A stretch of DNA of 63,057 nucleotides, counting the filler, from Folioceros fuciformis (taxonomy: Eukaryota), in NCBI GenBank assembly GCA_049999805.1. It is 7 parts of 7 records of this genome, joined end to end, with 100 filler letters (N's around TTAATTAATTAA, not from the genome) between each part and the next. Parts side by side here need not be neighbours in the genome. Positions count along the whole stretch, not along the records: positions 28,853 to 39,228 come from JBNGIO010002927.1; 6 more parts are not named here. The stretch is one strand, 5' to 3'. A program made the translations under genes and the position numbers. Shown here piece after piece: positions 12,190 to 54,537 of this stretch (positions within the stretch are counted from its first letter, which is position 1; each line of letters opens with the position of its first letter). The notes below the pieces were generated by a model. The model saw only the letters and a program-made list of their open reading frames with translations, had not been told where the DNA came from and searched no databases.

Positions 12190-12289
12190 NNNNNNNNNNN
12201 NNNNNNNNNNNNNNNNNNNNNNNNNNNNNNNNNTTAATTAATTAANNNNNNNNNNNNNNNNNNNNNNNNNNNNNNNNNNNNNNNNNNNN
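12190..12289. other. Artificial scaffold gap linker (N-run + TTAATTAATTAA + N-run); identical linkers at 21673-21772, 28753-28852, 39229-39328, 43111-43210, 61018-61117
   Basis: Six identical 100-nt spacers carrying stop codons in all frames. Confidence 0.98.
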
Positions 12290-21672: not shown

Positions 21673-21772
21673 NNNNNNNNNNNNNNNNNNNNNNNNNNNN
21701 NNNNNNNNNNNNNNNNTTAATTAATTAANNNNNNNNNNNNNNNNNNNNNNNNNNNNNNNNNNNNNNNNNNNN

Positions 21773-23321: not shown

Positions 23322-26300
23322 ATGTGGCACCAAGCTGGATGAGACACAAGCTGCAACAGCCCTTCTCATGTCATTGCCCTCCAGCTATCGGACGTTCGTC
23401 TCTTCACATAACAACAACATGCGGGCAGCTAGAGGAGGTACCTTACAGAAGTAATTGGTGCCCTGCTAGAAGAAGAGGCAACTAGACATGGAAGTCGCCA
23501 TGATGGCAGACATGAAAGTGCAAGCAGCTCAAGTAGAGTATTGTACTCATCTAAAGGGAAGGGACCCCGCTCGTCAAACGGCAGACAAGGGGGAAGACGC
23601 ACCCCTGAATCCAAACCATACAGCTCGAAGAAAAAGGGAGCTTGCAATTGGTGCAAGATCCTGGGGCACTTCGAGAAGGATTGTCGCAAAAAGGCTGCTG
23701 GAGAGCCCAAACGGGAAGGAGCTGAAACTCACACTCCCTCCTTCAAGAAATCAGGCACCATTCTGGCTACCTGCCTTGTATCCTCAAACGAAGATAGAAA
23801 GTGCTGGTTCATGGACTCAGGTGCCTCCCATCATGTCTGCAATCAACATGATGCCTTCACAGATTACAAACCTGCACTGAACGGTCAGACCATTCGTGTA
23901 GGAGACAACAGAGAGCTACCCATTTTAGGAGCAGGTTTAGTTCCACTCAGCCTGCCATCTAGACATGAGATCATACTGTTAGATGTTCTTCATGTCCCTA
24001 GAATGGTAAAGAACTTGGTATCAGTCACAAAGATAAAGGTTGCCTTACCAAGGGTTCGTGTGCTGTTTGAGTCTGAGCCTGACGAATGCCACATCGAGCA
24101 AGATGGGGTAGTCCTGGCCAAAGCTTACCCCTCCAATGACCTGTACAAGTTGGAGTGCACACCTTCCAGAATATACAGAGCTGCTCACCTTACACAAGCT
24201 GAGCATTCCGCTTACTTCAAGCTTTGGTATCACCGGCTCAGCCATATTAATGTGCGTAGAATGAAGGAGGTAGTAGAGGGAAACCTGTATAGAGAACCCC
24301 TCAAGTTTCAGCCCCAGACCAAGCTGTTCTGTGAGTCTTGCATTTACAGCAAGCACCACAAGTCTCCGCACATAGACAAAAATCACACTAGAGCCGAAGC
24401 TTTGCTAGAGTTAGTACATTCTGACCTATGTGGTCCCATGTCCAAAGCTGTCCTTTGGTGGGGCCAAGTATTTTCTTTCATTTATAGATGACTGGAGCAG
24501 GTTTACAGTAGTCTATTGCTTGGCAAAGAAGTCTCAAACCCTAGAGTTGTTTAAGGACTACTTTGCAACTGCACAGCGTCAGACCTAGCCTCTGCTCATG
24601 ACACTTCAGACAGATGGCGGGGGTGAGTACGGGTCAAATGCTTTCAAACAGCTTTGCAAAGAACTTGGCATACTTGGACAGCTTATTGTCTCCTACACCT
24701 CACAGCAGAATTCAATAGCTGAACGCAACAATGGCGTTATTCAAGAGCAGGCCAAGGCCTCACTTGCTCAGGCTAGCCTCTCCTTGGGGTATTGGGCTGA
24801 GGCTGTTACAGCTGCAGTTTACATAAAAAACCGAACACCTACAAGTGCAGTCCCCGGGAGTACACCATTTGAGAGGTGGACAACGCATAAGCCAAGAATT
24901 TCACACTTGAGAGTTTTTGGCAGCCCTGCCTATGCCTTCATCCCAAAAGAAAAAAGGAGAAAGATGCAACTAAATGCTATTAAGTGTATTTTTGTGGGGT
25001 ACATGGAGGGCATCAAAGGATATAAGCCTTTTAATCCTGAAAAACACCAGCTGATATATGCTCGGAGTGTGGTTTTTTATGAAGATGCAGTCCTCAACAG
25101 GACCTCCACCCTTGCACACCATGTTTCAGAAACTGAACCCGTTAGCACTAAGTCAGAAGCTACCACCTCCAAAGAAGTTAGTGAGGAGGACTTTGGAAGC
25201 ACACCTGGTGACTCTCCTCTTCACAGCCCTCGTGAGCGTCTTGATGGTGAAGCTTCGGTGCCAGCTAGTGCTGATCATTCTGATTCGAAGTCATCTGATC
25301 TGCTACTCAAGAGCCTCCAGCTGGAGACATCAGCCATTTTTCGTCCAACTCTTCGTCTGAATCTGACACTGCATCAAAGGCTGAGGACATAGTGACGCTC
25401 TCCAGTGATGACGAAGACCCTGCACCAGAGGTTGCCCCGCCCACCAGGACTGGTCGTCCTTCCCGAGTACATCGTTCTCGGGCCAACTGGACTGTGCCTC
25501 CGTACAATCCTCCCAGCAACTCTCTGTGGCCTTCCCGTCGAGGAGCACAAACAAAATCACAGGTCCCTGATCCAACCTTGCAATTCGGCACTGTCAACGT
25601 TGAGGGGGAGACACCTGCAGAGGGAGCTGGAGTTAGTGAAGGTACGACATTTGAAGGAGCAGATACTGAAAGAAGCACACAACGAAATGTTGCTCAAGCT
25701 CTAATTGCTTAGGCCCTATCTGCTGTTGATCAAGCTAGAGACCCGAGTACCATGACTGAAGCCTTAAATGGCCCTCACAGTGCCGATTGGAAGGCCACCA
25801 TCAAATCTGAATACGACAGCTGTGGAGTGATTTCTTGCACACCCAAGAACCACCAAGGGGCCACACTTCCCCTTATTATCGTTGCAGTCTTATGATTCGC
25901 TCCCAAGGGAGTGAACTGATGTCAAGGTTACCTACATCTCCCTAATCTCACCCTATCTATCAGCATATACCAAGTGCTACAGCAATAGGTCAGAATTCTC
26001 GGTCCTGTCTTCGGCTCCTACCACAACACCAACCCCAGCCTCAACAAAATGAGAACTCCAGCATTGTCTTCAGCCCTCGTTTCCAGCTCCAAGTATCAAT
26101 CACTTCAGTGCTAAGAGGAAGCTCCAGCCCCAAGTCTGGCCTCCAACTCTCAGCACCTCCTACCTCCGCAGCTAAACGAGAACCTCAACTTTAGCTAGCT
26201 CCTCACTCCAACTCCAACACTTCATTCCACCACTTCAGCACTTTAGTCCTTCACTTCAGCACTTCAGCACTTCAGTCCTTCACTTCAGCACTTCACTTCA

Positions 26301-27449
26301 CCCTCCAGCCCCTCACTTCAGCTCAACTTCTCACTTCAACACTTCCACTTCCAAAATCTGCAACTCAACCCTTCTCTCCTGCAATTTGGAACACAACAGC
26401 CTTCCCTCTTGCAGCCTTCAAGGCAGAGACGAGGCCTAGGGCTGGGTAGCCTCCTTGGCTCACGGCCCTACAACCTCACCTCAGCCAGCATGCAAGGTGG
26501 TCAGCCATTGCGGATCCGACCACACGAATCTTGGCAATCTTGGGATCCTCCATGTTCCCCTAGTGGCAAGGGAAATCATTACCTTGGTTTAGTCTCCACC
26601 AGCTTAGCGCCCTGAGCCAGGAGTTCTGCACCCAAGGTCCAGGGAAATCGCACCGTAAACAGCCCTCTCCTCAACGGCAGGTCTAGCCTCTTATACTACC
26701 TTGGCCCAAACCTCCATCTCTATCTATTAGGGTTAGCCTCAGTCAACCACCCAGCAATCTCTCTCTGACCTAAGCCGCCCCTAATTCTGACCTAAACCTA
26801 ACTCTAACCTAACCCTAACTTTGACCCAAACCTAGTTCTGACCTAATAGGGGTTATGTCCCATGGACACCACTGGGTGCCCTTACCAAAATTGACCAACC
26901 TCTCAAGACTACCAAAATGGTCAGTGCCTCTCAACACTCTCCCTCCTCTCTCAAATCATTCCATCCCTTCTCTCAGATCATTCCAGCAACCCTTCAAAGA
27001 TGCGTCTCGCCTCACCATTAATCTAGCTACTAATCTAACCTAATCTTTTAACCATTTCACCACAGGGTTCACTCAGAGATTCCCAAAAAGAGAAATCCTA
27101 CCATTTTCCAAGGACCTATTCAGCATGTGGAGTCCACAACAGCCTAATCCAGAATGGCACCTGGAAGCTTGAACCATTGCCACAAGGGAGAAAGGCGGTT
27201 ACCTGTAAGTGGGTCTTTAAGACCAAGCTCAACCCTGATGGTTCTACTGCAAGGTACAAGGCCAGGTTAGTGGCTCATGGATTCACGCAGCGATCAGGTC
27301 TAGATTACCATGATACCTTTTCGCCAGTTGTTAGGTTCACCTCAGTCCATGTCCTCCTTGCCTTCGTAGCACAGAATGACCTCACAGTCCATCATATGGA
27401 TGTGAAGAGAGCTTTCCTGCACGGAGAATTAGAAGAGAATGTGTATATG
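23322..27449 (+). mobile_element. Ty1/Copia element 4 (gag part, PR, INT, start of RT), degenerate; interrupted by a solo LTR and a family-B repeat
   Basis: CNWCKILGHFEKDC, WFMDSGASHH, LWYHRLSH, TDGGGEY, CKWVFKTK..YKARLVAHGF, HMDVKRAFL. Confidence 0.93.
25821..27138 (+). mobile_element. Family-A solo LTR (1318 bp)
   Basis: Inverted termini TGTGGA...TCCACA and a perfect 5-bp TSD ACAGC. Removing it restores Copia EYDS|LIQNGTW. Confidence 0.95.
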
Positions 27450-28519
27450 TGTGGAGGCAAAACCCCGGGCACTGATTGCCGACGGGTTCCACCTTTAGTG
27501 GCCACACTTATCCCACTGTCGTTGAGACATTGGGTTCCGTTCCTACGAAGGAGCGATGGGGTTCCTTGCTGCAGTGGATGGAGGGTCGGACTCAATCGAC
27601 TCGATGATGGATTCAAGGGCTCCCCTCCAGCTCCGATCAGGCGTAGGACAAGCCTCGCTGTCCAACGGTCAGCTGCACCTCTCTCGGTGCCCACAAAAAC
27701 ACTCCAGTCACTACAACGACCCTAACCGCTCAGATCTGCGACTTCCCTCACTCACTTCACTCGCTCTCTCACTCCAGCACCAACACCAGCAACTAACAAC
27801 AACACCACTACCTTCTACACTTCCCTATTGACTCCTCCTACCCGGCAAGAGTCACTAGACTAACCCCAAAGAAAAGAAAGAAGGGAACACACTTCCCTCT
27901 CGGATATCTCCTCCCCACAACCTTACCAGACGCCATGAAACATGACCGGCCTACAGCACTTGTCCAAACAGGGAACAAGAGTGGACAGGTCGAGAGAAAG
28001 ACACATCCTTTACAATCAAGAACTAGAGGCAAGCCCCTTCACCCTGGTCATTACACCTTGTAATCCTACCTGACACTGTACAACCGGCAACACGCAGCTT
28101 GCGATCCTACCAGACGTTGCACAGCCGGCAACACACTGTAGGTCCTAAACCAAGCAGGGACATACCACAGGAGCTCATGTAGAGAGTACCTCCAAGAGCT
28201 CACGAAGTGATAGACTAACTTCCAAAGTGAATGACTACCTCCTCCTACAGGCTCACCTGATCTTATAGGAGCCTCTCTCTCTCTCTGACTTCACCTCTCT
28301 CTAATTTGACAAATATTATTTTAATAGGACCACTAGCCTAGCTGGCTGTCACCAGAGACTTATTTAGACTTCTAGCACATCCTGCCACCAATGAGTTGGC
28401 CCTACAACCACAAGGATCTAGCATCGCTTAGAGTATCCAGAGACTTCGGAGGATGTATGATCTTCAAAGATCTGCAGACGCCGCCTCTTCCTTGCTAGAT
28501 AGCTGCCCGCTAAGTCTTT
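27450..28519 (+). mobile_element. Family-B long LTR-like repeat inserted in Copia RT
   Basis: Starts TGTGGAGGC right after the RT motif EENVYM. Interrupted at ~28520 by another LTR. Confidence 0.85.
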
Positions 28520-28752: not shown

Positions 28753-28898
28753 NNNNNNNNNNNNNNNNNNNNNNNNNNNNNNNNNNNNNNNNNNNNTTAA
28801 TTAATTAANNNNNNNNNNNNNNNNNNNNNNNNNNNNNNNNNNNNNNNNNNNNTTTTTCAACCAAAACAAACTACTACCCCAAACTTTGGAGGTTCACA

Positions 28899-31800
28899 AG
28901 TCCACATGTTCTTGGCGTAGTCCCTTTGTGCTGCTATTGCGAACAGTGTACGGACATAGGTGGCCCTGACTACAGACAAAAAGGTTTCTGTATAGTCCAG
29001 GCCTTCAACCTGGCTATACCCTCTTGCTACGAGACGAGCCTTGAAACGTGCTATGCTCCTATGAGCTGCAAGCTTTTTCTCAAATACCCACTTGCAGGTT
29101 ACTGGCTTTGTGCCATGAGGTAGGTCCACTAGTTCCCATGTACCGTTGTCCAGCAGTGACTGGTACCCTGAATCAATTGCCGCTGACCACTTTGACGCCT
29201 CAGGTCCACTGATAGCCTCTTTGTAGGATAGGGGCTCGACCAAGCTGTCAGGTGTGCTGTCATCCTGCACAAGGAATGAGTTGTAGGGGAGGGGTGGTGT
29301 TACCCACTCGTCGGGCGAAGCTGTGTGTCTCCTACTGCTTCGTCTTGGCAATTCAGCTTCTGGAGCTCATTCCTCCTCCGTCTCAGAGGCTTGTCCTTGT
29401 TTAGGTTCCATGACAGCTGCTTCCTCTTGGCTGCTAGTGTGGCTGCCTTCTGTATCCGCTTCATTCTCGTTGCTATCAGCAGTTCTAGCTTGGGTGTCAC
29501 CAGTGGTTTCCGCATCTTCGTCATCTAGGAACACGGTTGCAATCTGGTCGATAGTAGCTGCAGGCACGTGAGCAAAGTGGGTTGTGGTGCTGGTATGCTG
29601 GTATGTCTCCTCACTGCTTTCCCCTTCAGTGGTCCTACTTGTGGATGCTTCCTGTTCAGGTACCAGCTTCGAGAGCTCAGGAGGAGGTGTGAGGAGTGAC
29701 AGCTCGTCGAACACCACACTCCAGCAATGGGTGGTGCTTCTAGTGTTAGGATCCAGCAATTTATACCCTTAATACCTTCTGTGTAACCCACAAGTATGTA
29801 CTTGCGTGCCTTATAGTCGAGCTTGATCCTTCGGTCCTTGGACAAGTGTGTGTATGCTGGAGCACCGAAAATCCTCAGGTGATTTATTCGGGGCTTGTGG
29901 GTTGTCCAGCGCTCGTAAGGAGTTGCTCCTATGAACACGCTGGTAGGTCCCCTATTCCTGATGTATACAGCCGTACTAACTGCTTCTGCCCAGTACCCAC
30001 GTGAAAGACGTGCTTGCTGTAGCATTGCTTTTGCAGCTTCTTGTGTATGCCGGTTACTGATCTCTGCTATGGGGTTTTGTGCAGATGTGTACGGGGTGGT
30101 TAGCTGTATGGCTATGCTCTGTCCCTTGCAGAAGCTAGTAAAGGCATTCGAGGTATATTCGCCCCCGTTATCGCTCCTCAAGGTTTTCAACAGTTCACCT
30201 GTTTGCCTTTGTGCAAACGTCACAAATTCCATGAAGCATTCCAAGGTTTGGCTCTTCTGCTTGAGAGGGTACACCACAGTGTATCGGTTCCAATCATCTA
30301 TAAAAGACAAAAAGTATCTAGCTCTGCCAAGGGAGGTTGTGGACATGGGTCCACATAGGTCTGTATGTACCAGCTCCAGGAGCTTGGTAGCCCAAGTAGG
30401 GTTGCTATCTTGGTAGGGAGCACGATGGTATTTGCCGAACACACATGCCTCGCAGAAGGGCTTCTTAGCATGCTTCATCAGGAACTTCTCATGGTAAAGT
30501 GTGCTACTTTTAACCATTGTGTTTAGCTTGTCAAAGTTTGTGTGACCCAGCCGGCAATGCCACAGCTTCTTGTTGTGCCCGTGTCAGGTTTGCCATTGGT
30601 CTGCCAAGCTCATACTGGATGTCCAGTTTGTACCGGTTATGCACAGGAGTCCCTATTGCAACTATTTCACCTTTGTTTACCTAGTCAAGTACATGACATT
30701 GCCCGTTAGTGAACATAGTGCTCAGGTCGTGCTGCGTGTCTAGTAAGTAGACTTACACCAGGTTTTTGACCAGGGCTGGTACGTGCTGGACTTCGAGCAG
30801 GGTTTCAACCCTTCCACTTGTCGAAAGGACAGGGACCTTGCTGACTCCTACAACTGGCAGGCCACGATTGTCACCAAGTAGGACGACCTGACCCCTTGGG
30901 ACTTTTCTATACTCAGAGAATGCAGACAGAGTGTGGCAAATGTGCGACAACGCACCTGAGTCAAGGTAGCATGCATGCTTGTACTTTGGTGTAGAGACCA
31001 TGTAGACTGTTAGGACTGTGCCACACTTCCTCGACGTGATGTTGGCTTCAAGTGGGGCTGTACGGCGGGGCTCCCCTGCCTCCTTTTTCCTGCACTCTGC
31101 CTCCCAGTGTCCTAGAATGAGGCACCAGTTGCATGGGCCCTTTTTCTTGGTAGCAACTGCCGAAGGACGGCGTTTGAAGCTCCCACTGCCTCCAGCATTC
31201 TGATACTGTGAACCCCGACGTGGTGGCTGCCTCTTGGAACCTCTGTTAGTGTAGAGGACTCTGTTTGAGGACTCTCCTCTGGCGGAGGTACCACCTCTGC
31301 TAGCAATCCTCGTGGATTCTTCCTCCAGGAGGGCTCCGATGAGTCTGAAAGAGATACTGCAGGTGTTTGTCCTGCAGGTGTGGCCTGGGCCACGTTTCTC
31401 ATGTGTGTATAGTGATTGCTTACAAACACCCGGTAGCTGTCCGATAGGGAGAGAAGGAGGGCTACTGCAGCCTGCATCTCGATTGTTGCAGTCCCACAAG
31501 AGGTAAGCTTTGACCTTAGCATCCGGAACTTTATAACGTGTTGTTGCACTGACTCGTGCTCCTTCATCTTGCAGTTGTAGAACGCACGAGTAGCACTCAC
31601 CATGGAGGACCCGTTTGACACTTGGTAAATTTGATTCAAGGAGTTCCATACATCCTTGGTTGTGTCGGCATCTTGAGTATGATGCATCATAGACCCGTCC
31701 AAGGCTGATTGAATGATGCCCAATGCTCGAAGATCCATCTTTGCCCAAACATCAACATCACCTTGGACTGCTCATGGCGAAGGCTTGGGCACTGTGCCCG

Positions 31801-33252
31801 TCACAATGCCTCAGAGGTCATGCTCTCTTAGAATGGTTTGTACCCGTAAAGCCCATATGTCAAATCGGGTCCCATTAAATCTGTCTTTTTCTTTAAAGTT
31901 TATTTTCACGTTGTTGACCGTGGTTGTGTTGTTGGTGACAGTATGAGGTGGTGGTTGTGCCATGTTTCCTACAACTTGGTGTGCGAGTGCTGCTCCTGAT
32001 TGTGCAACTGCGTATGCCTAAGCTAGTTGTGCTACTGATACAGCATGCAAGCTTGTATTTGACTGGGAGGATGCAGCCTCCTGATTTAGACCAAGTGGAT
32101 CAACGGGAAATGGATTCAAGTCGGGGTTTACACCCCTTCCAATACCACAACCTCTACGACTGCCTCTTGGGTTTCTGATACCCCTACCATGATTACTATG
32201 GGACATGAGCCAGGTTTAGAGGGATGCCTGATCATGGGATGCACGAGACAAGGATTCTCGTTCCCATGACTCAAAACTTACTGGATGTGCCTGATTCATC
32301 TCCAGGTTTGGATAGGTCTGGTCAGGTTGCTTTGCAGGTTTGTGGGGTGCAGAGAGCCTATACAGCAACTCTATTTGACGTGTGAGGGTCACAATATGCC
32401 TCTGGGAATTGATGACCCTATCAGTCAGGTCACAAACCTGCTGACTATGTCTTTCTGACTCGGACCTTACAAGGTTGTAAATTTCCCGGAGGAATGGATC
32501 AGGATTGGGAGGATACGTGCTTGTGCAATTTTTGCAACAGGAAGTTTCACTCGCTCTCTGTGCGCTAATTGCTAGTGAGTGAGAAATTTCCTTGCGCATT
32601 TGCTTTCTTAGACTTGCTAAGGGATCTACCTGAACAGGTTTCAAAAACTGGTTGATGTACCTTCGTGATGCAGGCCTGGGACACATATTAAAGAAATGTT
32701 GGAGACTTTGATGTTGAGCCTCTACACTTAGACCAGGACTACAGGCAAACGGATCTACAGGTATTTTGCCTTTTCCACGTGCTCTCGGCATCCCGCTTAT
32801 CTATGAATAGTAGGGAAAGATAATATCTGCAAGAATCTTGTCAGCCATGTCTCCAGTCCTAACCGGCACTAATCGCATTGTAGAGATTACCATGCGGAAG
32901 TGCTCATGCGACAATCTTTTAATGCAGTCTACACTCTTGCAGGTTGTGCAATGCTTAGGTGGGGACATTGGCAAATCCATGCTCTGATACCATGGAAAAT
33001 TATAGACTAGTATCGAGAGAACAAGATTGCAGAAAAGAAAGAATTAAATTGTGCGCGGCCGGGATCAGCCTTAAGGCAAGAAGTGGGTGCATCGGTTCAC
33101 GGTGTCGTGAACGACGGTTAGTTAGGTCACAACTCTATAAAACGCCGAAGCGTTTCATATCTCGGCGTTTCACACCTAATGAATGAATGAATTAATTAAT
33201 TAATTAAGGCTGGCTACTTAAAATGCTAATTACTACGTATTCGCATTTTCCA
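28899..33252 (-). mobile_element. Ty1/Copia element 3 (5' LTR, PBS, leader ORF, gag, PR, INT, start of RT), abutting the truncated Gypsy protease
   Basis: LTR 32993-33252 with TGGAAAAT/ATTTTCCA termini; PBS 32981-32992. gag FKEKDRFNG..W and CNWCLILGHWEAEC; YLDSGA; RSDNGGEY; RT CKWVF..FKARLVARGYSQ. Cut at 28898 by another TG-starting repeat. Confidence 0.93.
32216..32791 (-). CDS. Copia leader extra ORF (191 aa, unknown function, helical/coiled-coil C-terminal half)
   Basis: Intact ATG-to-stop ORF between PBS and gag. Protein-level homolog at 19616-20221 in element 2. Confidence 0.75.
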   Translation of the reverse strand: MPRARGKGKIPVDPFACSPGLSVEAQHQSLQHFFNMCPRPASRRYINQFLKPVQVDPLASLRKQMRKEISHSLAISAQRASETSCCKNCTSTYPPNPDPFLREIYNLVRSESERHSQQVCDLTDRVINSQRHIVTLTRQIELLYRLSAPHKPAKQPDQTYPNLEMNQAHPVSFESWERESLSRASHDQASL

Positions 33253-33768
33253 TAAGAAGAAGAGATAGCGATTGATATGAAATGTTTGATTGTCAAATCT
33301 GGAAATTTTGATGTTATTTTAGGGACAAAGGCTTTATTCATGCATGGAGGAGGAGTGGACTTATGGACAGAGGAGTTTTACTATCGTCCAGGGTGGCGAC
33401 AAGGTGAGGGAATGAGAGTAGCAACAATTCCACTTAAGTTGCAATTACAGGATGACATGCAAGATGCGTGTGTAGTAAACATGACGACTTCTTGGGATGA
33501 GCAGGAGAAAGAAGATGAAGATGATAAGTTGTGGGTGGAGCGTCATATGGATAAGTTATGTTTAAAGGAATATAGTCATAACAGAGTGGAGGAGATCGCA
33601 ATGAGAGAAAATGTTAGTAGAGCATTAGCTGAAATTTTTAGAGAGCTTGAAAAACGACAGACTGAGTTTCAGCTAGATGATAAAATTCAGCTTTGTACAA
33701 AGAAAGCAGTTTGTAAACTTGAACCTGTGTGTAATAAACTTCTGACATTGAGTTCGTCTGAGTATGGA

Positions 33769-34705
33769 TTGGTTGTGGTTGAGTTGTTTGCTGGGATTGC
33801 ATCTGGTCTGGAGGCTGTGTTGGCTGCTGGGTATGTGGTCAGACGTTACATTTATTGTGATCCAGATGAAGTTTGTCAGGCAATTGCGAAGGCAAGGGTG
33901 TTTAAATTATGCAAAAAGTATCTTGAGCAATTAAAGGTTGAAGCTGTGAAGCAAGCGTTTTCTGTTTGGCTACAAGATGTTAGGCTTATAGGATTGGTAC
34001 AATTTCAAATGGAGGAAGAAGTTGATATGATAATAGCTGTCTGGGAATGTTAAGGGCATTCAATGGCAGGCAAGGGAAAAGGCTTGTTGGATTATAGGTC
34101 GGTGTTATTTTATGAGCTAATTAGGATTTTGAATTTGGTGCAAAACCATCAGAAGAAAGAATGTGGCTTTGTGATTGACAATGTGGATTCGCAAATGGAT
34201 AGAAGAGTAGCGTTGAGGTGAGATTTTGAGGAGATCAAGTATTATTTAGGTGAACCTATAAAGTTGGATGCAGTGTAGTTTGGATCTAGGGCTCATAGGC
34301 ATCGTTGTTTTTGGAATAACATGATGCCTAGGCATTTGTTGCAGATGCTTGTGAGTCAGTGGCAAAGGGATGATGATTAGATAGTCGATTAGATATTAGA
34401 TGAGGGGCGAGTGAGTAGGCAGGTGACTTCTGATGATAGACGGCCTTTTTATTGTGTAAATAAAAAGGGGGAGCTCAAGAGGGCGTTACCAACATTTGTA
34501 AGTTTTGAGGTGCCAATGCATTTAAAGGGGAAGGGCCTGGGATGATATTTGATATGAAGAGGAAGGTGTGGGATGTGCCATGGAGAGAGAGAGGACGATG
34601 GGTTTTGGCACAAATGCTACTCAAGTGGAAGGCATAATATTTAAGTAGAGGAATAAAAAACTTGGACAAGCTATGGATTTGAATACAATCAGATGGCTTA
34701 TGATG
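33769..34705 (+). pseudogene. DNMT3-like C5 cytosine DNA methyltransferase domain inside the Gypsy pol
   Basis: Motif I VVELFAGIASG; II YIYCDPD; III QDVR; IV DMIIAVWEC*GHSMAG; GLLDYRSVLFYELIRIL; VI FVIDNV; VIII PIKLDAV*FGSRAHRHRCFWNN; IX ERERTMGF; X LGQAMDLNTIRWL. Canonical order, in frame with the protease; stops and frameshifts present. Confidence 0.9.
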
Positions 34706-37700
34706 TCTATAAAAGTTTATTAGGAGTGGAAGAGAAAGTGGAAAGTTATTTTAAGCACAAGGTTAGAAGGACGTAGTCTAAGTAAAGTAAGAAGAGATGA
34801 AGGTCTAGACACTGGGGGGGAGACTAAGAGAATGAGAGAGCATGATGAGGTTTTAGGTGATGAGTGCAAGCAAAGCAAGCAAATGAGATATGGGGCAAAG
34901 GTGGTAGATGCGGAAAGAAAAGTTGGGAATGCGGCTAGCTCAGGCTGTGGGATTAACGTCTATGAGAAACAGGAGTGTATGGATTTTCAGTGGGATATTT
35001 TTGATGAGATAACCTTGGAGGATAGGGAGGATTTTGTAAGGATTTTGGAAAGTAGCAGGCAGGTATTTGCTTTTTCCAATAAGGAATTAGGCAAGCACAA
35101 GACATTTAAGTTTAAGATTCGGCTTAAAACTTCTGAACCGGTTTTTAGAAGGCCATATCGTTTGAGTAAATTGGAGAATGAGATTGTGGACAAGAAATGT
35201 CAAGAGCTGCTTGAGGCTGGATTGATAAGATCTTTGGAAATCAAAGTATGCAACAGCTACGGTGCTCCCACCAAAGAAGGATGTGCATGGTAATTGGACA
35301 GAAAAGAGGATGTGTGGTGACTATAGACCGCTTAATGAGGTGACGCCTATGGATAGATATCCAATGCCGACTCCTGAGGAGATTTTTGATGCAATTGGTG
35401 AATGTAACATATTTTCAACATTGGATTTGAGGGGTGGCTTTAATCAAATTGAAATTGAGGAGGAGGATAAAAAGACTACTTTTTGGGGTAATAGATGTTT
35501 GTGGGAATGGGTAGTTATCCCATTTGGATTGAAGAATGCTCCTAGTGCTTTTCAGGGAGCAATGGATCAAGCATTGAGAGGTTTGTCATTCACCAAATGT
35601 TACATAGATGATGTAATAATCTTTAGTAGTAGTGTGGAAGAACATAAGAAGCATGTTAGGCGAGTGTTGGATAAACTGAAAGAGGTTGGTTTGACGTGTC
35701 ACCCACAAAAGTGCAGGTTTGGGTCCTCTAAGATAGCATATTTGGGACATTTTATAGTGCCTAGGGGTACAACACTATCTGATGTTAAAGTTGAAACGAT
35801 AGCAAAAATGATACCACCTTCGGATGTGGGAACTTTGCGTTATTTTTTAGGATTGGTGAATTATTATCGCAATTTTGTGGCAAACCACAGTGTGGAGGTA
35901 AAACCAATGACAATGTTGTTAAAGAAAGATGCAGTGTGGGTTTGGAGAGAAGATCAGCAGAGAGCATTTAAGGAGATAAGGACATTTTGATGAGCAAGAC
36001 CTTGTTCATAAGACCTCATTTTGACAGAAAGTTTAAGTTATATATAGATTGGAGCAAACTTGGTTTGGGATCAGTGCTGGTGCAAGATGATGAGAGTGGG
36101 GTAGAACATGTGGTAGCATATGCAAGCAGGAGTAACAATTCTGCAGAGAGCAATTATTCCTTATATCATGGGGAATGTTTGGCGGCAGTGTGGGCAGTAT
36201 CACACTTTAGACCTTGTTTGTATGGGGCTCAATTTGAGTTGGTGACAGATCATCAGCCTTTGAAGTGGTTGATGAAGAGTGAAAAGTTGACAGGAAAGTG
36301 AGCAAGGTGGGCACTTATTTTGCAAGAGTATAATTTTTCTATTGAGCATAGGACAGGAGTGAAACACACAAATGCAGATGTGTTGTCAAGAAATCCATTG
36401 GGAACTTCAGAAGACTTAACAGTTGCTAAGCAGGATTTTGATAAGAATGTTGGGGTTGACTGCAATCTGGTGGTGTCCAGATGGACACCTAGCGCATATT
36501 TGGTGAATTTGGTGGAGTTGGGAGTTTCTTCGGTGCCAGTAGATGTGTGGGAGGATAAGAATACATTAGAGAGGGTGATGATAGGTGGTAATCAGGAATC
36601 GCTAACGGTGAAGGAGAATGATAGGGTGACAAAGCGTAGTAGGAGATATGTATGGGTTGACAATAAGTTGTTGTTTAAGGATAACATGAGTGTGGTACCA
36701 AGACTTGAAGAAAAAAAGGGTTTGGCAAGAAAGATTCAGGTGGAGTTAGGACATTTTGGTACAAAAAGAACATTGAGTTTGCTCATGAATAGTTATTATT
36801 AGAAGGGAATGATGGATGTAGTTGAGAAGGTAGTGTCTACTTGTGAGGTTTGTGATAGGGTGAAGGCAAGTTTCTCAGGCAAAACTTCTCAACTTCATCT
36901 GCTGCCTATTAGGGGGATGTTTTATAGGTGGCGTTTGGATTTGGCTGGAGAGTTATCAGTCACATGTAGAGGTTTTAAATATGTGTTGGTGATGATAGAA
37001 CATTTTTCTAAATGGATAGTTTTGGTGCCTTTGAGAGAGAAGAAGTCACATGATATTAAGGAATCATTTCTCAATCATGTGTTGAGTGTTTTTAGGGCTT
37101 GTGCAGAAGTTCTAATAGATCAAGGCACTGAATTTATGGGAGAATTTGATCAATTTTTAAATGAGTACTTTATTGATCATAGGGTAACTTCAAGGAATCA
37201 CCCGGAGGCTGATGGTTTAGCAAAGAGAATGGTACAGACATGTAAGAGTGCTTTGAGGAAATATTGTCTGGACAAGAGTGAGTGGGATAGGATGTTACTA
37301 TTTAATGCAATGGGTTGTAGGATGAGTAGGCAAGCATCGCTGGGAAAGTTTTCACCGTACATGTTGTTTGGGCGTAGACTACAGTTATCTGGTATGTTAG
37401 AAGACAAGGTGAATGCTATAGTGAATTTGGACGATCCTAATAAGTGATTAAAGATAGTCACGTACAGAGCAGAGTTGTTTAAAAAAAGCAATGCCTATGG
37501 CAATGGATAATTTGTTAATAGCTCAATATAGGGATGAGCTAAGATACAGGAAAACAAGGAGTGGACATTTCAGGCCTAAGGTGAAAAAGTTTGAAGTTGG
37601 AGATTATGTATATTTGCAGAGGAAGACGATGACGACAATTGATACAAGTGCGAGTAGGATAATATTGAGGGTGAGAAGTGTGAAGTTGAATGGAATTCTA

Positions 37701-37823
37701 GAGTTGGAGGGAAAGGATGGCACAACTTGTCTGGAACACATGAAAAATTGTGCACCATGTCATTTACCTCACTTGAATCCGATAATTGATGTGCAAGCTT
37801 TTGTGCCAAGGAAGGGGTTCGCT

Positions 37824-37958
37824 TGTATAGGTTGTGGAGATTCTGGAGGTGATCATTGCATGTTGTTGTGTGATAGATGCAATGATGGGTGGCATACTTT
37901 TTGTTTAGAGCCCCCGCTAGAAGTAGTGCCAGATGGGCAATGGTTTGTCCAATGTGTG
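37824..37958 (+). other. PHD finger at the integrase C-terminus
   Basis: CIGC..LLCDRC..WHTFC..PPL..VP.G.WF. Restoring one T at ~37946 gives WFCPMC and completes C4HC3. Confidence 0.88.
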
Positions 37959-38083
37959 TAGTAGTTGATACATTGTGAAGGGCAGTATGTTCAATGTGTA
38001 TGTATGTTGATGAAAAGTTTGTTAATCTGGCTTACCAACGAGAGATGGTCAGCAGGTTAAGGGAGGGAGTGAAGGTGTCACAG

Positions 38084-38373
38084 CGAGGGAGAAGGAGTAG
38101 AGGACAAATATTCTTTTCGTCAATCTTGTGTGTAGTAAACCACCAAAGAGTGGCAGGATGACCAGTAGCCTTGGTGTGCACGATGGAGAGGAAGCATACA
38201 AGGGGAGGCATTGAAGAATTATGAGTGTGATCACTAAACTCACATCGAGGGAGAAGGAGTAGAGGACAACTATTCCTTTCGTCGATCTCGTGTGTAGTAA
38301 ACCACCAAAGAGTGGCAGGATGACCAGTAGCCTTGGTGTGCATGACGGAGAGGAAGCATCCAAGGGGAGGCAT
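38084..38373 (+). repeat. Two ~128-bp direct repeats (period 162) in the putative Gypsy 3' LTR
   Basis: CGAGGGAGAAGGAGTAGAGG...GGGGAGGCAT at 38084 and 38246. Confidence 0.9.
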
Positions 38374-38538
38374 CCAAGTGCACTGTTAACAAGAATATGC
38401 GCGTATATCATACAGGGGTTGGCCACCCCATATACATATGTATGCATGCTATATATATATATAATATATATGAGTGTTCAGAGACGTTTAGGGTTAAGTT
38501 CAGATGTTGAGGAGCAAGACCTCTTGAAGCACGACAAT

Positions 38539-39085
38539 TGTTCCCCCTGGTGGCTGAGCTTGTCTCCATGGGAGGAATATGAGCAGTGGGAGAAGATAGG
38601 GAAGAGGTGAGAAGAAGTGTGATCAACAGTTGAAACTAGGCCTAAAATTGGCAACTTATTCAACAGAATTAGTTTCCAGCCGAAACGGTTCCTAGGCCGT
38701 AGAAAACTGATCCCGGGGTGTTGGGACAGTTCCCAGACTGTTAGGGAAGGAAACAGGTGAGAAAGAGCAAAGTCAGAATTTTTGAAATTAAATCCAGAAA
38801 AATTAAACCTTCCCCTATAGTTGTTCCCCCTGGTAGCTGAGCCTGTCTCCATGGGAGGAATATGTGCAGTGGGAGAAGATAGGGAAGAGGTGAGAAGAAG
38901 TGTGATCAGCAGTTGAAACTAGGTCTAAAATCGGCAACTTATTCAGCAGAATTAGTTTCCAGCCGAGATGGTTCCTTGGCCATAGAAAACTGATCCTGGG
39001 GTGTTGGGATAGTTCCTAGACTATTAGGGAAGGAAACAGGTGAGAAAGAGCAAAGTCAGAATTTCTGAAATTAAATCCAGAAAAA
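38539..39085 (+). repeat. Tandem duplication (period 282) of a module homologous to family-B repeats
   Basis: TTGTTCCCCCTGGT...AAATCCAGAAAA at 38539 and 38821; reverse-complement similarity to ~43350-43610 and ~21890-22150. Confidence 0.85.
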
Positions 39086-39328
39086 TAAGAGAGAAAAAAG
39101 AAAAGAAAGATTAGGGGGAAATTAGGGGAAAAGAATATATGGGAATACGGATACCATATACATAGTAATATGTATCAAATACATATAAAATATATTGGGG
39201 TGTACATATATGGACCGTATACATACCTNNNNNNNNNNNNNNNNNNNNNNNNNNNNNNNNNNNNNNNNNNNNTTAATTAATTAANNNNNNNNNNNNNNNN
39301 NNNNNNNNNNNNNNNNNNNNNNNNNNNN

Positions 39329-42300
39329 GCTACCCCGTGTGGCGAGTCCGCATGAAGTCACTGCTCGTCGGCAGGGGCGTGTGGAAGGTGGTCGACCGGA
39401 GCTACCCCAAGCCGTCCCCAGCCTCCGTCCCTCCGCCCTCGGTTGCCGACGTAGAGCGATGGGACTTCCTCAACGGAATCGCCATCGCCCTTATCATCAG
39501 CGGCTTGGACTCGAGCCTGGTCCCTGGTATCGAGTTCCTCACCGAGGCCTCTGCCATTTGGGACCAGCTCGCCAACACCTACAATGTCAACAACGTCCTG
39601 ACCCTCTACAGCGCCAGGCAGGAGTTCAACGCCCTCAGAATGAAGGAGTCCGACACAGTAGCTGCCCACACCTCAAGATTTCAACAGCTACGAGGGCAGC
39701 TGACATCTCTCGGCTCGACGATGCCTGAGACGGACGCCGCCGCCCAACTGTTGATGAGCTTGCCACATTCATATCAGTATTTCGTCACCAGTTTGATGCT
39801 GATGTCGACACGTGGTGTTGCTGGCTCCATCTCCTCTCTTACAGTGGAGGAGATTAGTGGAGCGCTTTATCAACACGAGTAGAGCCGCCTTACGTCGGCA
39901 GGCAGGTCCAAGCCCAAGGCTGACAAGACGCTTGCTGCTTGAGCCAGGCCCAGGAAGGCAAACGGGAAGCAAGTCAACACCTCCAAGGGCGCTTCGACCT
40001 CTGCTCCACCACGCCGGACGGGCAACTGCAACTGGTGCGGCACTCCCAGCCACTGGGCACGGGAATGCTGAAAGAAGAAAGCTGGGGAACCTATGAAGCC
40101 CGGCCTCCGACAAACGGCCAATGTGGCCGTCAAGGGCAAGACTGAAGACAGCAAGATCGTGAAGATTCTCACCGTCTGCCTCAGCACCCAGCCACGGCCA
40201 GATCAAGGGTGGTACCCGGACAGCGGTGCCACCGCCCATATCTGCAATGACGACGCCCTCTTCTCCAAGCTGGACCGACGTCCCGTCAGAGAGAGGGTCC
40301 TCCTCGGCGACGAACAGAATAAGTCAAGCTTACCCATCCTTGGACACGGGACCTGTGATTTGCCTTTGTCCGATGGTTCTATCCTAACCTTAGAACCAGT
40401 ACTTTATGTGCCACAGATGGGCAAGAACCTTGTATCCCTTACCCAGTTACTGCGGCACAGTTCACTAGAAGTCAACTTTTCCCGTGACTCCTGCTGCTTT
40501 TACAGACTAGATAGTCCTGATCTATGCCTAATGGGAGCCATCCCCCAAGATGGTTTGTACAGACTTACTCTTAACAACAAACAAGGACCTCTTGCTTACG
40601 TCGCTAGACAGTCAGCCGAAGACCTGGCTGCCCTGTGGCATGCCAGGCTGGGTCACATTAACAAGCACAAGCTCATATCCATGTCCTCACTAGGTCTCTA
40701 CCAAGAGCCACTCCCTAGATGTTTCCAACACTTGTCAGTTTGCGAATCCTGTGTCCTCGCCAAGCAGAAGGAGTCTCCCTTCCCGAAGGCGGCACATAGG
40801 GCTGAGGCCGTGCTAGCCTTAGTTCATGCCGACATATCCAGGAAGATTCAGACTCCCTCCCTTGGTGGTGCTATATACTATCTCACCCTCACAGATGACT
40901 TCAGCAGATACTCTTGGACCTTTCCAATGCATCTGAAGAGCGAGACGTTCACATACTTCAGTGAGTGGCTCACAGTGGCTGAACGCCAGGCTGACCAGAA
41001 ACTGAAGACCTTGCGGAGCGACAATGGCACGGAGTTTGTCAACCATGAGTTTGATGTTTTCCTCCTGGAGCGAGGAATTCAGAGACAACTCACGGTACCT
41101 TACACTCCACAGCAGAATGGAGTAGCGGAGCGCAAGAACCAAACGCTTCTATCCATGACCAGGAGCATGCTGCTATGGTCTGGACTCCCACAAGGCTTCT
41201 GGGCTGAGGCGATTGTGGCAGCAACCTATATCTTGAATCGAGTCATCACAAGCTCAGTTCTCGGCCGTACCCCCTACAAGGTATATTGGCAGCGCAAGCC
41301 CAACATTCAACATCTACGGGTATTCGGCTCACCCGCCTTCGCCCACATCCCTGCCCAGAAGCAACGCAAGTTGGATGATAGGGCAAAGAAGCTTATTTTC
41401 GTGGGCTACAGCGAGAGTTCCAAGGCCTACAAGCTCTGTGACCCGGGGACGCACAACATCACCCTGGCGCGCACAATCACCTTCCTGGAGCCAGTCAAGC
41501 CAGCTTCAGCGGGAGATGTGTCGATCAACAGCCCTGTGGCAGGCGACCCCGACACTGTGTGCGCGTACCCCACCGAAGACGGTGATCAAGGCTACATGGA
41601 CAACCCCGACGATGGCCCTGTCCCTGAGGACAATGAGTCATCCGCCCCTGGCGTACCTCCTGAAGACCCTAATGGTACCCTTTCCATTGTTCAGCCCCAT
41701 ATTGATGATGATGCTAATGACCTTGGCCAGGAATCGCCATCGGTTGCCCCGCAGGAGCTGCCTCCTGCGGAGCCCGTGTTGGCTGATGACGAGACTGTGC
41801 CGGCTGTTCTGGCCCCCAATCCCGGCCCTCGCCGCAGCACACGGCATCAAGCGCCACCATCTTAGTGGGCAGAGCCACCCTACTAGTCCGTTGACTTCAG
41901 GACAGCCTTCAACTCCCTATCCGCGGCCTTATCTCTAGTGGCCCTTCCAGAGGAACCAACCACTCTTTCCCAAGCCCTCGCAGGACCTGAGTCCTCGCAA
42001 TGGCGGATCGCAGTGGAGGATGAGTACCAAAGTCTGCTTCAAAACAAGACTTGGGAACTCGTCGACCCGCCCCCTGGAAGGAAGCCCATTTCCTGCAAGT
42101 GGATGTTCAAGCTTAAGCTTAACGCCCAAGGACAGGTGGCTCGTTTCAAGGCCTGGTTGGTGGCCCGAGGATTCTCCCAGGTTGAAGGACTGGACTACCA
42201 AGAGACTTTCTCACAGGTGGTACGTGCACAATCCATACGGATTATGCTTGCCCTCGCAGCTGAGCTGGATCTGGAGCTCCATCAAATGGACGTCAAGGCT

Positions 42301-43110
42301 GCCTATCTCTACGGCATCTTGGACAAGGAGCTCTACATGGATCAACCGGAGGGCTATGTCAGCAAGGAGTTCCCCCACAAGGTGCTCAGGCTAAGGAAGT
42401 GCATATATGGCCTCAAGCAGAGCGGGCGAGTGTGGTATACTACTATGCACATCTACTTGCTCAGCATTTCCTTCGTCCAGAGCGCGGCCGACGGCAACGT
42501 CTACACCCTGACTCAAGGCCCCCATTTCGTCATCCTTGCCTTGTATGTGGATGACCTCATCCTTTCCGCTAACAACCTGGACTTGTTAGCGGAGGTCAAA
42601 CAGCTCTTGAGCTCCCGTTTTGAGATGAAGGATATTGGGGAGCTTCAATTCTGCCTTGGAATTCATATTTTGAGGAATAGAACTGAAAGGAAACTGGTCA
42701 TCCATCAGTACAAGTACATCAACGAGATACTACGGAAATTTAAATTGGATCAAGTCAGGCCCGTCACCACACCCTATGCTGTGGGCGTAAGACTCACTGC
42801 TGAGCAGTGTCTTCAGACTGAAGAGGAGAGCAAGGACATGCATGGGATCCCTTATCGCCATGTTGTAGGAAGCCTTCTCTTCATCAGTGGCTGGACCAGG
42901 CCCGACATCCATTATTCCGTCTCCACAGTATCCCAGTTCCTGGAGAACCTTGGCAAGGCACATTGGGCTGCAGTCAAGAGAGTATTCCGTTACCTGAAGG
43001 GCACCCTGACTTATGGGCTGATGTACCAGAGTGGAGGGACCGGCAGGTTTCTTCTCAGTGGCTACACTGACGCAGACTGGGCATCCGATCCAGACTCAAG
43101 GAAGAGCTTG
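39329..43110 (+). mobile_element. Ty1/Copia element 5, gag-pol internal region (few stops), bounded by gaps
   Basis: gag; CNWCGTPSHWAREC; PR DSGATAH; INT RSDNGTEF; RT QMDVKAAYL, YGLKQSGR, LYVDD; RNase H start GYTDADWA. Closely related to element 1. Confidence 0.95.
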
Positions 43111-43210
43111 NNNNNNNNNNNNNNNNNNNNNNNNNNNNNNNNNNNNNNNNNNNNTTAATTAATTAANNNNNNNNNNNNNNNNNNNNNNNNNNNNNNNNNN
43201 NNNNNNNNNN

Positions 43211-44684
43211 GTATACGGTCTGTATACATACACCCCCCTTTATATGGTTTAGATATGTATTTAATACGTATTGATATGTATACCATATATATATCCCCGT
43301 ATTTCTTTTCTTTTTATTTTCCTAATTTCCCCTTTTCTATTTTTGCTTTTTCTGGATTCAATTCCAGAAATTCCAATTCAACTCTGTTTCACCTGCTTTC
43401 TTCTCCTCCTAGTTCGGGGCCTATTCCAGCATCCCAAGGTCAGTCTTCCATGGCCGAGGAACCATTTTGGCTGGAAGCTGATTCCGCTGAATAAGCTACC
43501 GTTTTCAGGCCAGGTTCAAGCTGCTGATCCCATTGCTTCTTACCTCCTCTCTATCTTTCCCACTACTCATACTCCTCCCCTGGAGGCTGGCTCAGCCACC
43601 AAGGGTGAATAGTTGCAGGGGAAGACTTAGCGGGCGGCCGTCCAGCAAGGAAGAGGCGGCGTCCGCAGATCTTTGAAGATTAGACATCCTCCAAAGTCTC
43701 AGGATAGTCTAAGAGGTGGTAGATCCTTGTGGTGGTAGGGCCAGCTCATTGGTGGCAAGATGTGCTAGAAGTCTAAATAAGTGGCTGGTGACAGCCGACT
43801 AGGCTAGTGGTCCTATTAAAATAATATTTGTCAAGTTAGAGAGGTGAAGTCAGAGAGAGAGAGGCTCCTATAAGATCAGGTGAGCCTATAGGAGGAGGTA
43901 GTCATTCACTTTGGGAGTCAGTCTGTCACTTCGTGAGCTCTTGGAGGTACTCTCTTCATGAGCTCTTGTGGTCTGTTCCTGCTTGGTTTAGGACCTGCAG
44001 TGTGTTGCCGGCTGTGCAACGTCTGGTAGGATCGCAAGCCGCGTGTTGCCGGTTGTATAGTGTCTAGTAGGATCACAAGGTGTAATGACCAGGGTGTAGG
44101 GGCTTGCCCTTAGCTCTTGATTGTAAAGGATGTGTCTTTTTCTCGACCTGTCCACTCTTGTTCCCTGTTTGGACAAGTGCTGTAGGCCGGCCATGTTTCA
44201 TGGCATCTGGTAAGGTTGTGGGGGGGAGATACCCGAGAGGGGAGTATGTTCCCTTCTTTCTTTTCTTTGGGGTTAGTCTAGTGACTCTTGCCGGGTAGGA
44301 GGAGTCAGTAGGGAAGTGTAGAAGGTAGTGGTGTCATTGTTAGTTGCTGGTGTTGGTGCTGGAGTGAGAGAGTGAGTGAAGTGAGTAAGGGAAGTCACAG
44401 ATCTGAGAGGTTAGGGTTGTTGTAGTGACTAGAGTGAGTTTGTGGGCACCGAGAGAGGTGCAGCTGACTGCTGGACAGCGAGGCATGTTCTACACCTGAT
44501 CGGAGCTGGAGGGGAGCCCTCAACTCCATCATCGAGTCGATTGAGTCTAACCCTCCATCCACAGCAGCAAGGAACCCCATCGCTCCTTCGTGGGAACGAA
44601 ACCCAATGTCTCAACGATAGTGGGATAAGTGTGGCCGCAAAAGGTTGAACCCATTGGCAAACAGTGCCTGGTGTTTTGCCACCA
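43211..44684 (-). mobile_element. Family-B long LTR-like repeat
   Basis: Colinear with 21773-23321; terminus TGGTGGCAAAA at 44684. Confidence 0.85.
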
Positions 44685-53600: not shown

Positions 53601-54409
53601 GCTTATGTTTTGGTAGTGAAGATGCATCTGTAGTGGGATATACGAATGCTGATTATGCAAGGGATATGGACAAAAGGAGGTCCACATCAGGTTATGTCTT
53701 CATGTGCACTGGAGGGACAGTCTCATGACGATCTTGTTTGCAATCGTGCATGACACTATCTACCACAGAGGCTGAGTATGTTGCAGCGATTGAGGCTTGC
53801 AAGGAAGCCATGTGGCTTGCTCGTTTAATGGGAGATTTGGGGATCAAGGTTGAGCTGCCGGTGTTGCATTGTGATAGCCAGAGAGCTATCCAATTGGCAA
53901 TGAATCCAGTGTTTCATGCGAAGACCAAACATGTGGAAGTGAAGTATCACTTCATTCGAGAGGTGTTGGAAGACAAGAGGGTACAGCTTGTCAAAGTTCA
54001 TACTAGTCAGAACCCTGTAGATGTTCTTACCAAGGGGCTCTTTACGGAGCAATTCGCACAAGCTTAGACACTCATGGGCATGAGGTAGACCACTCTCCTA
54101 TGAAGGTAAATTGGCCTTTAAGTGGGAGGTTGTAGGGTTATTAAAGCCCAATGTGCTTAGACTAATGTGTTTAGTCTAAGATTAGTGTCTAGTTAAGTAT
54201 CATTAGTTTAGATTAGCTTAACCTAATCCGTAGGAAGCTTCTTGCGCAGCTTCCTATGCGCTTCTAGTGAAGCTTCCTAGAGAGCCCTTCTAGAGGGTAT
54301 AAATACCCCCTTGAGCTCCCTTGCAATGAGACTCTGTGTGAGAGTGTGACCTCTCTTTCTCCTCTCCTTCTCTCCTCCTTCACCATGTGGCTCCTCTAGA
54401 GATCCTTCA
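50660..54409 (+). mobile_element. Ty1/Copia element 6, internally deleted (non-autonomous)
   Basis: 279-bp LTRs 50660-50938 and 54131-54409; TSD TGCTT/TCCTT; PBS 50941-50952. gag IEKLDGTNF, CYHCHKKGHIRRDC; WIIDSGAS. INT jumps to the RT C-terminus at ~53510; RNase H present. Confidence 0.96.
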
Positions 54410-54537
54410 TCCTTTTCCGACTCAAGGGCCCGGTTGCGCTCCTTCCGATATCGGTCCCTGTTCGTAGCGTGCTGGCGACAAGCGACCAAGGAGTCCACGT
54501 CCTGCTTCTGCCATGCCTGCCACTCCCTGGCATGTAT

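Follow-up and report, generated by a model that had tools for sequence, protein, structure and literature searches.

A decayed Ty3/gypsy retrotransposon carrying a DNMT3-like methyltransferase domain in Folioceros fuciformis

Structure of the element and of its methyltransferase domain

A stretch of 63,057 nucleotides from the genome assembly of Folioceros fuciformis (GCA_049999805.1), called the window here, was analysed over its whole length. One of its seven segments (positions 28853-39228, from record JBNGIO010002927.1) carries on the plus strand, at 33208-37961, the pol region of a Ty3/gypsy retrotransposon, consisting of the end of a protease (PR), a C5 cytosine methyltransferase (MTase; 33760-34723), a reverse transcriptase (RT), an RNase H (RH), an integrase (IN) and a PHD finger. 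The three-frame translation of 33200-38100, together with a read-through in which stops were written as X, gives one colinear polyprotein that is spread over three frames. The Ty3/gypsy order PR-RT-RH-IN is recognized in it, and the sole departure from this order is the MTase inserted after the protease.

All parts of the element lie on the plus strand. The retropepsin-type protease is present as a C-terminal remnant at 33208-33405 ('DVILGTKALF...' in frame from 33256), and the N-terminal parts of related proteins matched 33208-33453 in tblastn. In the intact relative P0155 this region corresponds to a stretch overlapping Pfam Asp_protease_2 (residues 796-888); no Pfam protease match was found in the window's own remnant. 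In the translation an acidic linker (33406-33759) leads to MTase motifs I-VIII (33760-34545), and motifs IX-X follow in another frame (34553-34723), where BLAST aligns the same part of the relatives at 35-51% identity. After a further linker (34724-35228), also read from the translation, come RT in the third frame (35229-35990; Pfam RVT_1, 102.6 bits), RNase H (35972-36400; RT_RNaseH, 122.3 bits, and RT_RNaseH_2, 81.7 bits) and integrase with its H2C2 zinc domain and catalytic core (36701-37447; Integrase_H2C2, 40.6 bits, and rve, 42.8 bits). The post-integrase region (37458-37961), 38-54% identical to that of the relatives, ends in the PHD finger at about 37824-37946 (Pfam PHD, 28.2 bits; cut-off 24). 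Among solved structures, the best matches of this finger were KDM5A/B PHD1, WSTF, ATXR5, BAZ2A, CHD4, UHRF1 and AIRE, most of which read the unmodified H3 tail. A 3' non-coding tail (37962-39228) with tandem duplications at 38078-38373 and 38538-39086 runs up to a 100-nt spacer. The left end of the element, 33208, adjoins an (AATG)3(TTAA)4 run, whose (TTAA)4 part is 33192-33207 and which contains, without N, the 12-mer TTAATTAATTAA of the window's spacers; because of this, the 5' truncation of the copy may be either biological or an assembly joint.

The protease C-terminus, the linker and MTase motifs I-VIII share one frame (33256-34545). Motif I reads ELFAGIASG from about 33775. Motif IV reads V-W-E-C followed by a stop (34039-34053; W-E-C at 34042-34050), with the catalytic Cys at 34048-34050 preceded by Glu and not by Pro, and motif VI reads D-N-V (34177-34185), the Glu of ENV being absent from this copy. 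Motif VIII is FGSRAHRHRCFWNN, and the RxR signature is read in SRAHRHRCFW. Past the frameshift near 34545-34553, motifs IX and X read ERERTMGFG ... LGQAMDLNTIRWL (34577-34705), so that motifs I, VIII, IX and X stand in canonical order, the last two after the frameshift. A previous reading of this DNA from the sequence alone (the sequence-only reading) had placed C5-MTase motifs at 33769-34705, in canonical order, in the frame of the protease and ahead of RT; both the translation and Pfam bear this out, and the boundaries were right to within about 10 bases. The Pfam comparison that it had proposed gave a match to PF00145 (DNA_methylase) above the cut-off, at 28.0 bits against 22 (E = 1.9e-6; residues 236-352 of the read-through), and the motif IX-X piece taken alone had no Pfam match.

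With the MTase part as the query, a HMMER search of 1.84 billion representative proteins gave 845 matches at E <= 1e-3, including 392 at <= 1e-10 and 72 at <= 1e-30, with a best (phmmer) E-value of 9.9e-49. Identities were about 30-43% over the full matched stretch, and chance as the source of this similarity is excluded; an Atlas search gave only generic C5-methylase clusters. When a profile built from the window and 17 MTase-only relatives (alignment A1) was searched against all PDB sequences, DNMT3A (1.1e-22), DNMT3B (3e-20) and DNMT3C (1e-19) came ahead of tobacco DRM (NtDRM, 1e-12), M.HhaI (6e-9), DRM2 (7e-8) and DNMT2 (0.01), and DNMT1 was not among the matches. These scores agree with the likeness to DNMT3 claimed earlier and support a DNMT3-like domain; its motif order is non-permuted. 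Like cellular DNMT3A, 3B and 3C, the window family has the same motif order and DAxxxSxAHRxRxFW, and its LFAGIASG resembles LFDGIATG of DNMT3A. Unlike them, it is without PWWP or ADD domains, sits in a retroelement polyprotein and has Glu where the catalytic Cys is canonically preceded by Pro, the family's G-W-E-C aligning on G-S-P-C of DNMT3A. Plant DRM, in contrast, is permuted (PMC5890265).

The window copy is dead and codes for nothing now, in agreement with the inactivation noted in the sequence-only reading: its five reading pieces contain 14 stops, and the frame changes at least four times, near 34545-34553, 35229-35293, 35972-35990 and 37447-37458. The piece 33256-34545 has six stops in 430 codons, the piece 34553-35293 has three in 247, and the RNase H and integrase piece (35972-37447) has two internal ones. 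Within the MTase, motifs I-VIII contain five internal stops and one at the frame break, and motifs IX-X one internal stop and one at the end. The coding strand over 33256-37961 is about 29% G and 11% C, with a GC content of 0.40, a GC skew of 0.44 (0.00-0.27 in the pol regions of relatives) and a CpG observed/expected ratio of 0.37 (0.75 in a host gene). Strand-specific C-to-T hypermutation was considered as the cause of the excess of G over C and rejected, the stop spectrum being without a clean signature; of the nine stops out of 14 that can be aligned to relatives, three fall at Gln/Arg columns, one at Trp and five elsewhere.

Copies in the host and relatives with two domain orders

Contigs of three DNA runs (X1, X2 and X3) from one sample of the same organism were aligned on 33200-38100 at an identity of at least 80%. 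The numbers of matching contigs were 1162, 1053 and 1816, respectively, all 30 bins were covered, and the MTase bins were covered as much as the RT bins. In X1, 170 contigs were at least 99% identical to the window, 314 were 95-99%, 368 were 90-95% and 310 were below 90%. The host family is thus multi-copy and diverged, with the MTase as well represented as RT, although contig counts are not copy numbers. The sequence-only reading had named copies of this RT family without the MTase as the finding that would speak against it; the host contigs cover both domains alike. One further run, presumed to be RNA, gave only two partial contigs, less than 90% alike. C-to-T differences occurred at 290 places in X3 (141 and 130 in X1 and X2), many of them at full depth where X1 and X2 had none; X3 may therefore be a conversion-type library (bisulfite or enzymatic methyl-seq-like) of the same sample, holding methylation data for the family.

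Pieces of the window were mapped by BLAST on the 150 best of the 845 MTase matches. Adjacent retro-element parts were found in 98 of the 150, and 53 were MTase-only fragments. Two domain orders were recognized: type A, RT-RH-MTase-IN-PHD, which is the majority (66 and a further 17 probable), and type B, PR-MTase-RT, which is that of the window (six and a further eight probable). A search with the window's RT gave 119 matches, 38 of them with an RT at least 48% identical; the MTase lies upstream in six of the 38, and the remaining 32 proteins start at most 257 residues before RT and thus have no room for it. An intact example of type B is P0155, with 2327 amino acids in one frame (zf-CCHC at 530, Asp_protease_2 at 796-888, DNA_methylase at 978-1226 with 48 bits, then RVT_1, RNase H and integrase). 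Type B includes KFL_013780020 of Klebsormidium nitens (by Pfam, zf-CCHC at 297-313, protease at 597-692 and DNA_methylase at 833-971), gene models of Mesostigma viride, proteins of Closterium sp. NIES-53, -54, -65 and -68, and Mp_2g26090 and MARPO_0091s0058 of Marchantia polymorpha; the RTs of Calypogeia fissa fall in one clade with that of the window. The sole named host of type A is a chlorophyte, Scenedesmus sp. PABB004 ('pol', P0093, KAF8056149.1). RT identity to the window is 30-45% for type A and 48-59% for the PR-MTase-RT group, and no named organism exceeds 59%; going by their deposited proteins, the host is therefore none of K. nitens, Closterium, Marchantia polymorpha, Mesostigma and Calypogeia fissa.

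At the DNA level, a metagenome scan with the alignment A3 yielded 80 loci, in which the MTase was upstream of RT in 24, RT or RH was upstream of the MTase in 34 (e.g. L024 and L044), the MTase stood directly before IN in seven, and 15 were uninformative. One locus, L072 (3368-8752), has a single 1795-aa open reading frame (ORF) in the order MTase-RT-RH-IN, and its MTase groups with type A on a long branch; it may represent a third domain order, or the grouping may be an artefact of the tree. Direct repeats of 300 nt about 8.7 kb apart were found in two relatives, L060 (1676-1975 and 10350-10649) and L006 (4381-4680 and 13128-13427). In L060, a 113-nt repeat (10238-10350 and 10693-10805) flanks the 3' copy, giving the arrangement A-coding-B-A-B; this is a DIRS-like repeat layout, as a figure legend gives for the Klebsormidium element (PMC5890265).

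The intact relatives encode gag(CCHC)-protease-DNMT3-like MTase-RT-RNase H-integrase-PHD. In the five least-decayed type B loci, gag-PR-MTase and RT-RH-IN-PHD lie in the same frame with one stop between them (L001:4661, L002:5083, L003:2081, L006:9720 and L007:4509). The codons after the stop are CAA TCA, CAG TTA (twice), CAA CCC and CAA CCA, and four of the five fit stop-CARYYA, the read-through context known from tobamoviruses. In such stop-bearing relatives the MTase would be made at Gag levels, and RT and IN via read-through alone. The stop likewise accounts for the large number of proteins in the databases, about 1040 amino acids long, whose start lies just before RT. Not all relatives have it: in L072, and in proteins like P0155, the reading frame runs on from the MTase into RT, and the window is open at the equivalent position; the remaining 18 of the 24 MTase-upstream loci are too decayed to judge.

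Three trees were used for the placement of the window element. The first MTase tree (49 rows of element MTases; IQ-TREE quick mode, unrooted) splits type A (29 rows) from type B (14 rows) by one branch with a support of 99 in the SH-like approximate likelihood ratio test (SH-aLRT), the window lying on the B side, beside P0285 (support 81). A second MTase tree of 43 rows added K. nitens, Mesostigma, a further Closterium protein and five metagenome loci, and its B side comprises the window and all named streptophytes (support 94). In the RT-RH tree (45 rows, rooted with 11 other Ty3/gypsy elements; the RT fragment of K. nitens was too short for inclusion), all MTase-bearing elements form one clade (100), which splits into A (100) and a group of B with the short 'RT-first' proteins (97), and the window is in the latter. 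Judging from these topologies, the MTase and RT agree and place the window element in the streptophyte clade. A single capture in a common ancestor, with one relocation within the polyprotein, would be the simplest reading of the two domain orders.

Interpretation and rival explanations

The window element belongs, as a decayed member, to the Gypsy-DNMT3 kind already known from streptophytes, a lineage first described in K. nitens. In our estimate, the probability that the region 33208-39228 as a whole represents one incomplete and heavily decayed copy from a multi-copy Ty3/gypsy family of its host, belonging to this lineage, is about 85%. The precedent in charophyte algae to which the sequence-only reading had referred (de Mendoza et al. 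2018) is real: KnitGypsy-Dnmt3 of K. nitens is, like the window element, a Ty3/gypsy element with a non-permuted Dnmt3-type MTase in its polyprotein (PMC5890265). KFL_013780020, which is presumably KnitGypsy-Dnmt3, shares with the window the order zf-CCHC-protease-DNA_methylase and the side of the MTase tree; it differs in its host and in an MTase identity of only about 34%, and the window copy is dead. The type A lineage has the MTase family, the EC or PC form of motif IV, the integrase with a C-terminal PHD finger and the one RT clade (100) in common with the window, but its MTase lies between RNase H and integrase. Chromoviruses are Ty3/gypsy elements with a chromodomain after the integrase, and likewise carry a chromatin reader joined to the C-terminal end of the integrase; in the window element, however, the reader is a PHD finger and a DNA methyltransferase is carried too. 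A Dnmt3-type MTase in a retroelement Pol is also found in SymbioDIRS-Dnmt3 of dinoflagellates, in which two domain orders co-exist, but this element is of the DIRS type and has a tyrosine recombinase in place of an integrase (PMC5890265).

Several observations weigh against this interpretation or limit it. As for completeness, gag and the N-terminal part of the protease were found nowhere in the window by tblastn with the gag-PR parts of seven relatives, no direct repeat pair that could be long terminal repeats (LTRs) surrounds the element within the window, and its right end is merely the end of the segment at the spacer (39228). A derivation of the MTase from DNMT3 rests on profile scores against solved structures and, for K. 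nitens, on de Mendoza et al. 2018. The grouping of L072, with its MTase-RT order, on the A side of the second MTase tree means that the architecture label needs two changes. As for activity, none has been shown for any Gypsy-DNMT3 member, most relatives have Glu for the Pro of the catalytic Pro-Cys, and the D-N-V of motif VI is a defect of the window copy, not of the family.

What the MTase does for these elements is a separate question from their identity. It would be translated within the Gag-Pol polyprotein, which for some relatives means within an abundant Gag-PR-MTase product upstream of the read-through stop, and the protease would then release it. The mechanism that we prefer, though it is short of probable, is close to the one suggested in the sequence-only reading: the enzyme would methylate the element's own new cDNA or the copy at the integration site, with the integrase-linked PHD finger tethering the complex to chromatin. 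Another explanation, which we regard as rather unlikely, is that the MTase of the family no longer methylates DNA and has been retained for binding to DNA or chromatin, or that its substrate is RNA, for instance the genomic RNA of the element. The motif and selection data bear on both. In the MTase segments of 139 relatives, motif IV could be scored in 116, where it ends in EC in 74, PC in 33, SC in five and other pairs in four; the preference for EC over the canonical PC speaks for a loss of DNA methylation. On the other hand, the catalytic Cys is kept in 114 of the 116, E-N-[VTA] in 125 of the 139 and xAHRxR, with its RxR, in 129, and D at the Glu position of motif VI was found in none of the 139. 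The sequence-only reading had pointed out WEC and DNV: both motifs do read so and the Cys is retained, but of the two only DNV is private to the window copy, and WEC is a trait of the lineage.

Purifying selection likewise argues against a loss of the activity. Nei-Gojobori estimates, made for pairs of metagenome relatives only, gave MTase dN/dS values of 0.12 for L002-L003 (dS 0.27), 0.11 for L001-L002 (dS 1.4, near saturation), 0.095 for L001-L003 and 0.185 for L006-L007. The corresponding value for RT in L001-L002 is 0.04, and that of the PR-MTase linker in the same pair is 0.35, the linker evolving faster than the MTase. The MTase domain of the relatives thus appears to be under purifying selection, which at a dN/dS of about 0.1-0.19 would be unusual for a pseudo-enzyme, and these values agree with the Ka/Ks below 0.2 of the K. 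nitens Gypsy-Dnmt3 MTase (PMC5890265). The conserved catalytic Cys, ENV and RxR together with the low dN/dS suggest that the domain is used, and do not by themselves indicate on which substrate. For the K. nitens domain, no methylation was detected in yeast, which favours the loss of DNA methylation, but its authors called the result inconclusive, human DNMT3B having failed too (PMC5890265). SymbioDIRS-Dnmt3, in contrast, was shown to methylate CG in yeast, and the gypsy domain was not (PMC5890265). A role on RNA might be suggested by the five relatives in which the MTase is placed in the Gag-PR product upstream of the read-through stop, beside an RNA-binding CCHC gag; against it, the closest solved relatives are the DNA enzymes DNMT3A, B and C, and the tRNA-methylating DNMT2 was matched only at E = 0.01.

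As for the origin of the domain, the sequence-only reading had left room for an independent capture, by which the window's lineage would have taken a host DNMT3 a second time, apart from the Klebsormidium elements. The low identity of the MTase to KFL_013780020 (34%) is in its favour, as is the fact that the MTase tree is unrooted, so that host DNMT3s could branch between the element clades. However, the MTases of the window, K. nitens, Mesostigma, Closterium and Marchantia lie on one side of the branch (94-99), the RT-RH tree agrees with this grouping (97), within a single MTase-bearing clade (100), the gag-PR-MTase order is the same in K. nitens and the relatives, and the unusual EC motif is shared, as is the PHD finger at the C-terminus. 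Such a capture is contradicted by the joint placement of the MTase and RT and would be very improbable. The idea of a one-off insertion of a pseudogene or gene fragment of a host DNMT3 into an ordinary gypsy copy, to which the single copy in the window, full of stops, might point, has a negligible probability and is refuted by the host contigs (more than 1000 per DNA run, with MTase and RT bins covered alike), the metagenome loci (24 of 80 with the window's order at the DNA level) and the retro-element context of 98 of the 150 best MTase matches, the MTase being, moreover, in frame with the protease remnant.

Two later papers, as far as their accessible parts go, speak of Gypsy-DNMT3 'in streptophytes' solely by citing de Mendoza et al. 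2018. In the literature searched, no account of Gypsy-DNMT elements in liverworts or Closterium was found, and the name 'KnitGypsy' was confined to the 2018 paper. Nor was any published account found of how broad the family is, of two domain orders in a single clade or of the read-through stop; the figures and supplements of the 2018 paper may show domain order and catalytic residues. New relative to this literature are the abundance of the family in the host, the gag-PR-MTase-RT design from Mesostigma and Klebsormidium to gene models of Closterium and liverworts, and the sister design in a chlorophyte; taken together, breadth, abundance and sister design suggest an old and broad association of the MTase with the element that has been under selection.

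Plants defend themselves against transposons chiefly by DNA methylation, a weapon that in this family the transposon itself carries. The window copy alone, being a fossil, matters little, and the by-products of its analysis (breadth of the family, the pair of domain orders and the read-through stop) may outweigh it. The relatives also supply natural intact ORFs with which DNA activity and its target can be tested. A wider proposal, which we offer tentatively and regard as somewhat doubtful, is that the host is a land-plant-grade streptophyte with a very high-copy Gypsy-DNMT3-PHD family, forming a branch of a single ancient pan-Viridiplantae lineage in which one captured DNMT3 later moved within the polyprotein (PR-MTase-RT in streptophytes including liverworts, RT-RH-MTase-IN in chlorophytes) and is in part made at Gag levels upstream of stop-CARYYA. 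If so, transposon-borne de novo methyltransferases would be a long-standing and widespread input to the methylomes of the green lineage and not an oddity of Klebsormidium.

Other contents of the window

The seven segments are separated by six spacers of 100 nt, each built as N44-TTAATTAATTAA-N44 (12190-12289, 21673-21772, 28753-28852, 39229-39328, 43111-43210 and 61018-61117), and neighbours across a spacer need not adjoin in the genome. No second copy of the Gypsy-DNMT3 element exists in the window, as all five of its pieces matched only themselves in tblastn, and Rfam (at gathering thresholds) and ARAGORN gave no match in the window. To the left of the element, short hairpin-like palindromes occur at about 33100-33190, and a minus-strand ORF of 194 amino acids (32216-32800) has no Pfam match.

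A full-size PDR-type ABCG transporter gene was found at 3990-11007 on the plus strand, with about 14-20 exons, many short introns and Pfam matches to ABC_tran and ABC2_membrane. It is overall about 48-55% identical to the best-scoring PDRs of angiosperms, gymnosperms, lycophytes and liverworts, and a FastTree analysis gave a three-way split with liverwort and seed-plant sequences; by this gene, the host is a streptophyte. Ty1/copia elements are recognized at 13760-18264 (minus strand), 23433-27725 (plus) and 52082-59311 (plus), where the ORFs tested matched Retrotran_gag_2, gag_pre-integrs, rve and RVT_2 of Pfam, and, as judged by eye only, at 28857-31771 (minus) and 39330-43110 (plus). Direct repeats of about 1.4 kb, 82-94% identical, lie in two different segments (21846-23312 and 43307-44677) and probably represent LTRs, or else copies of a different element family.

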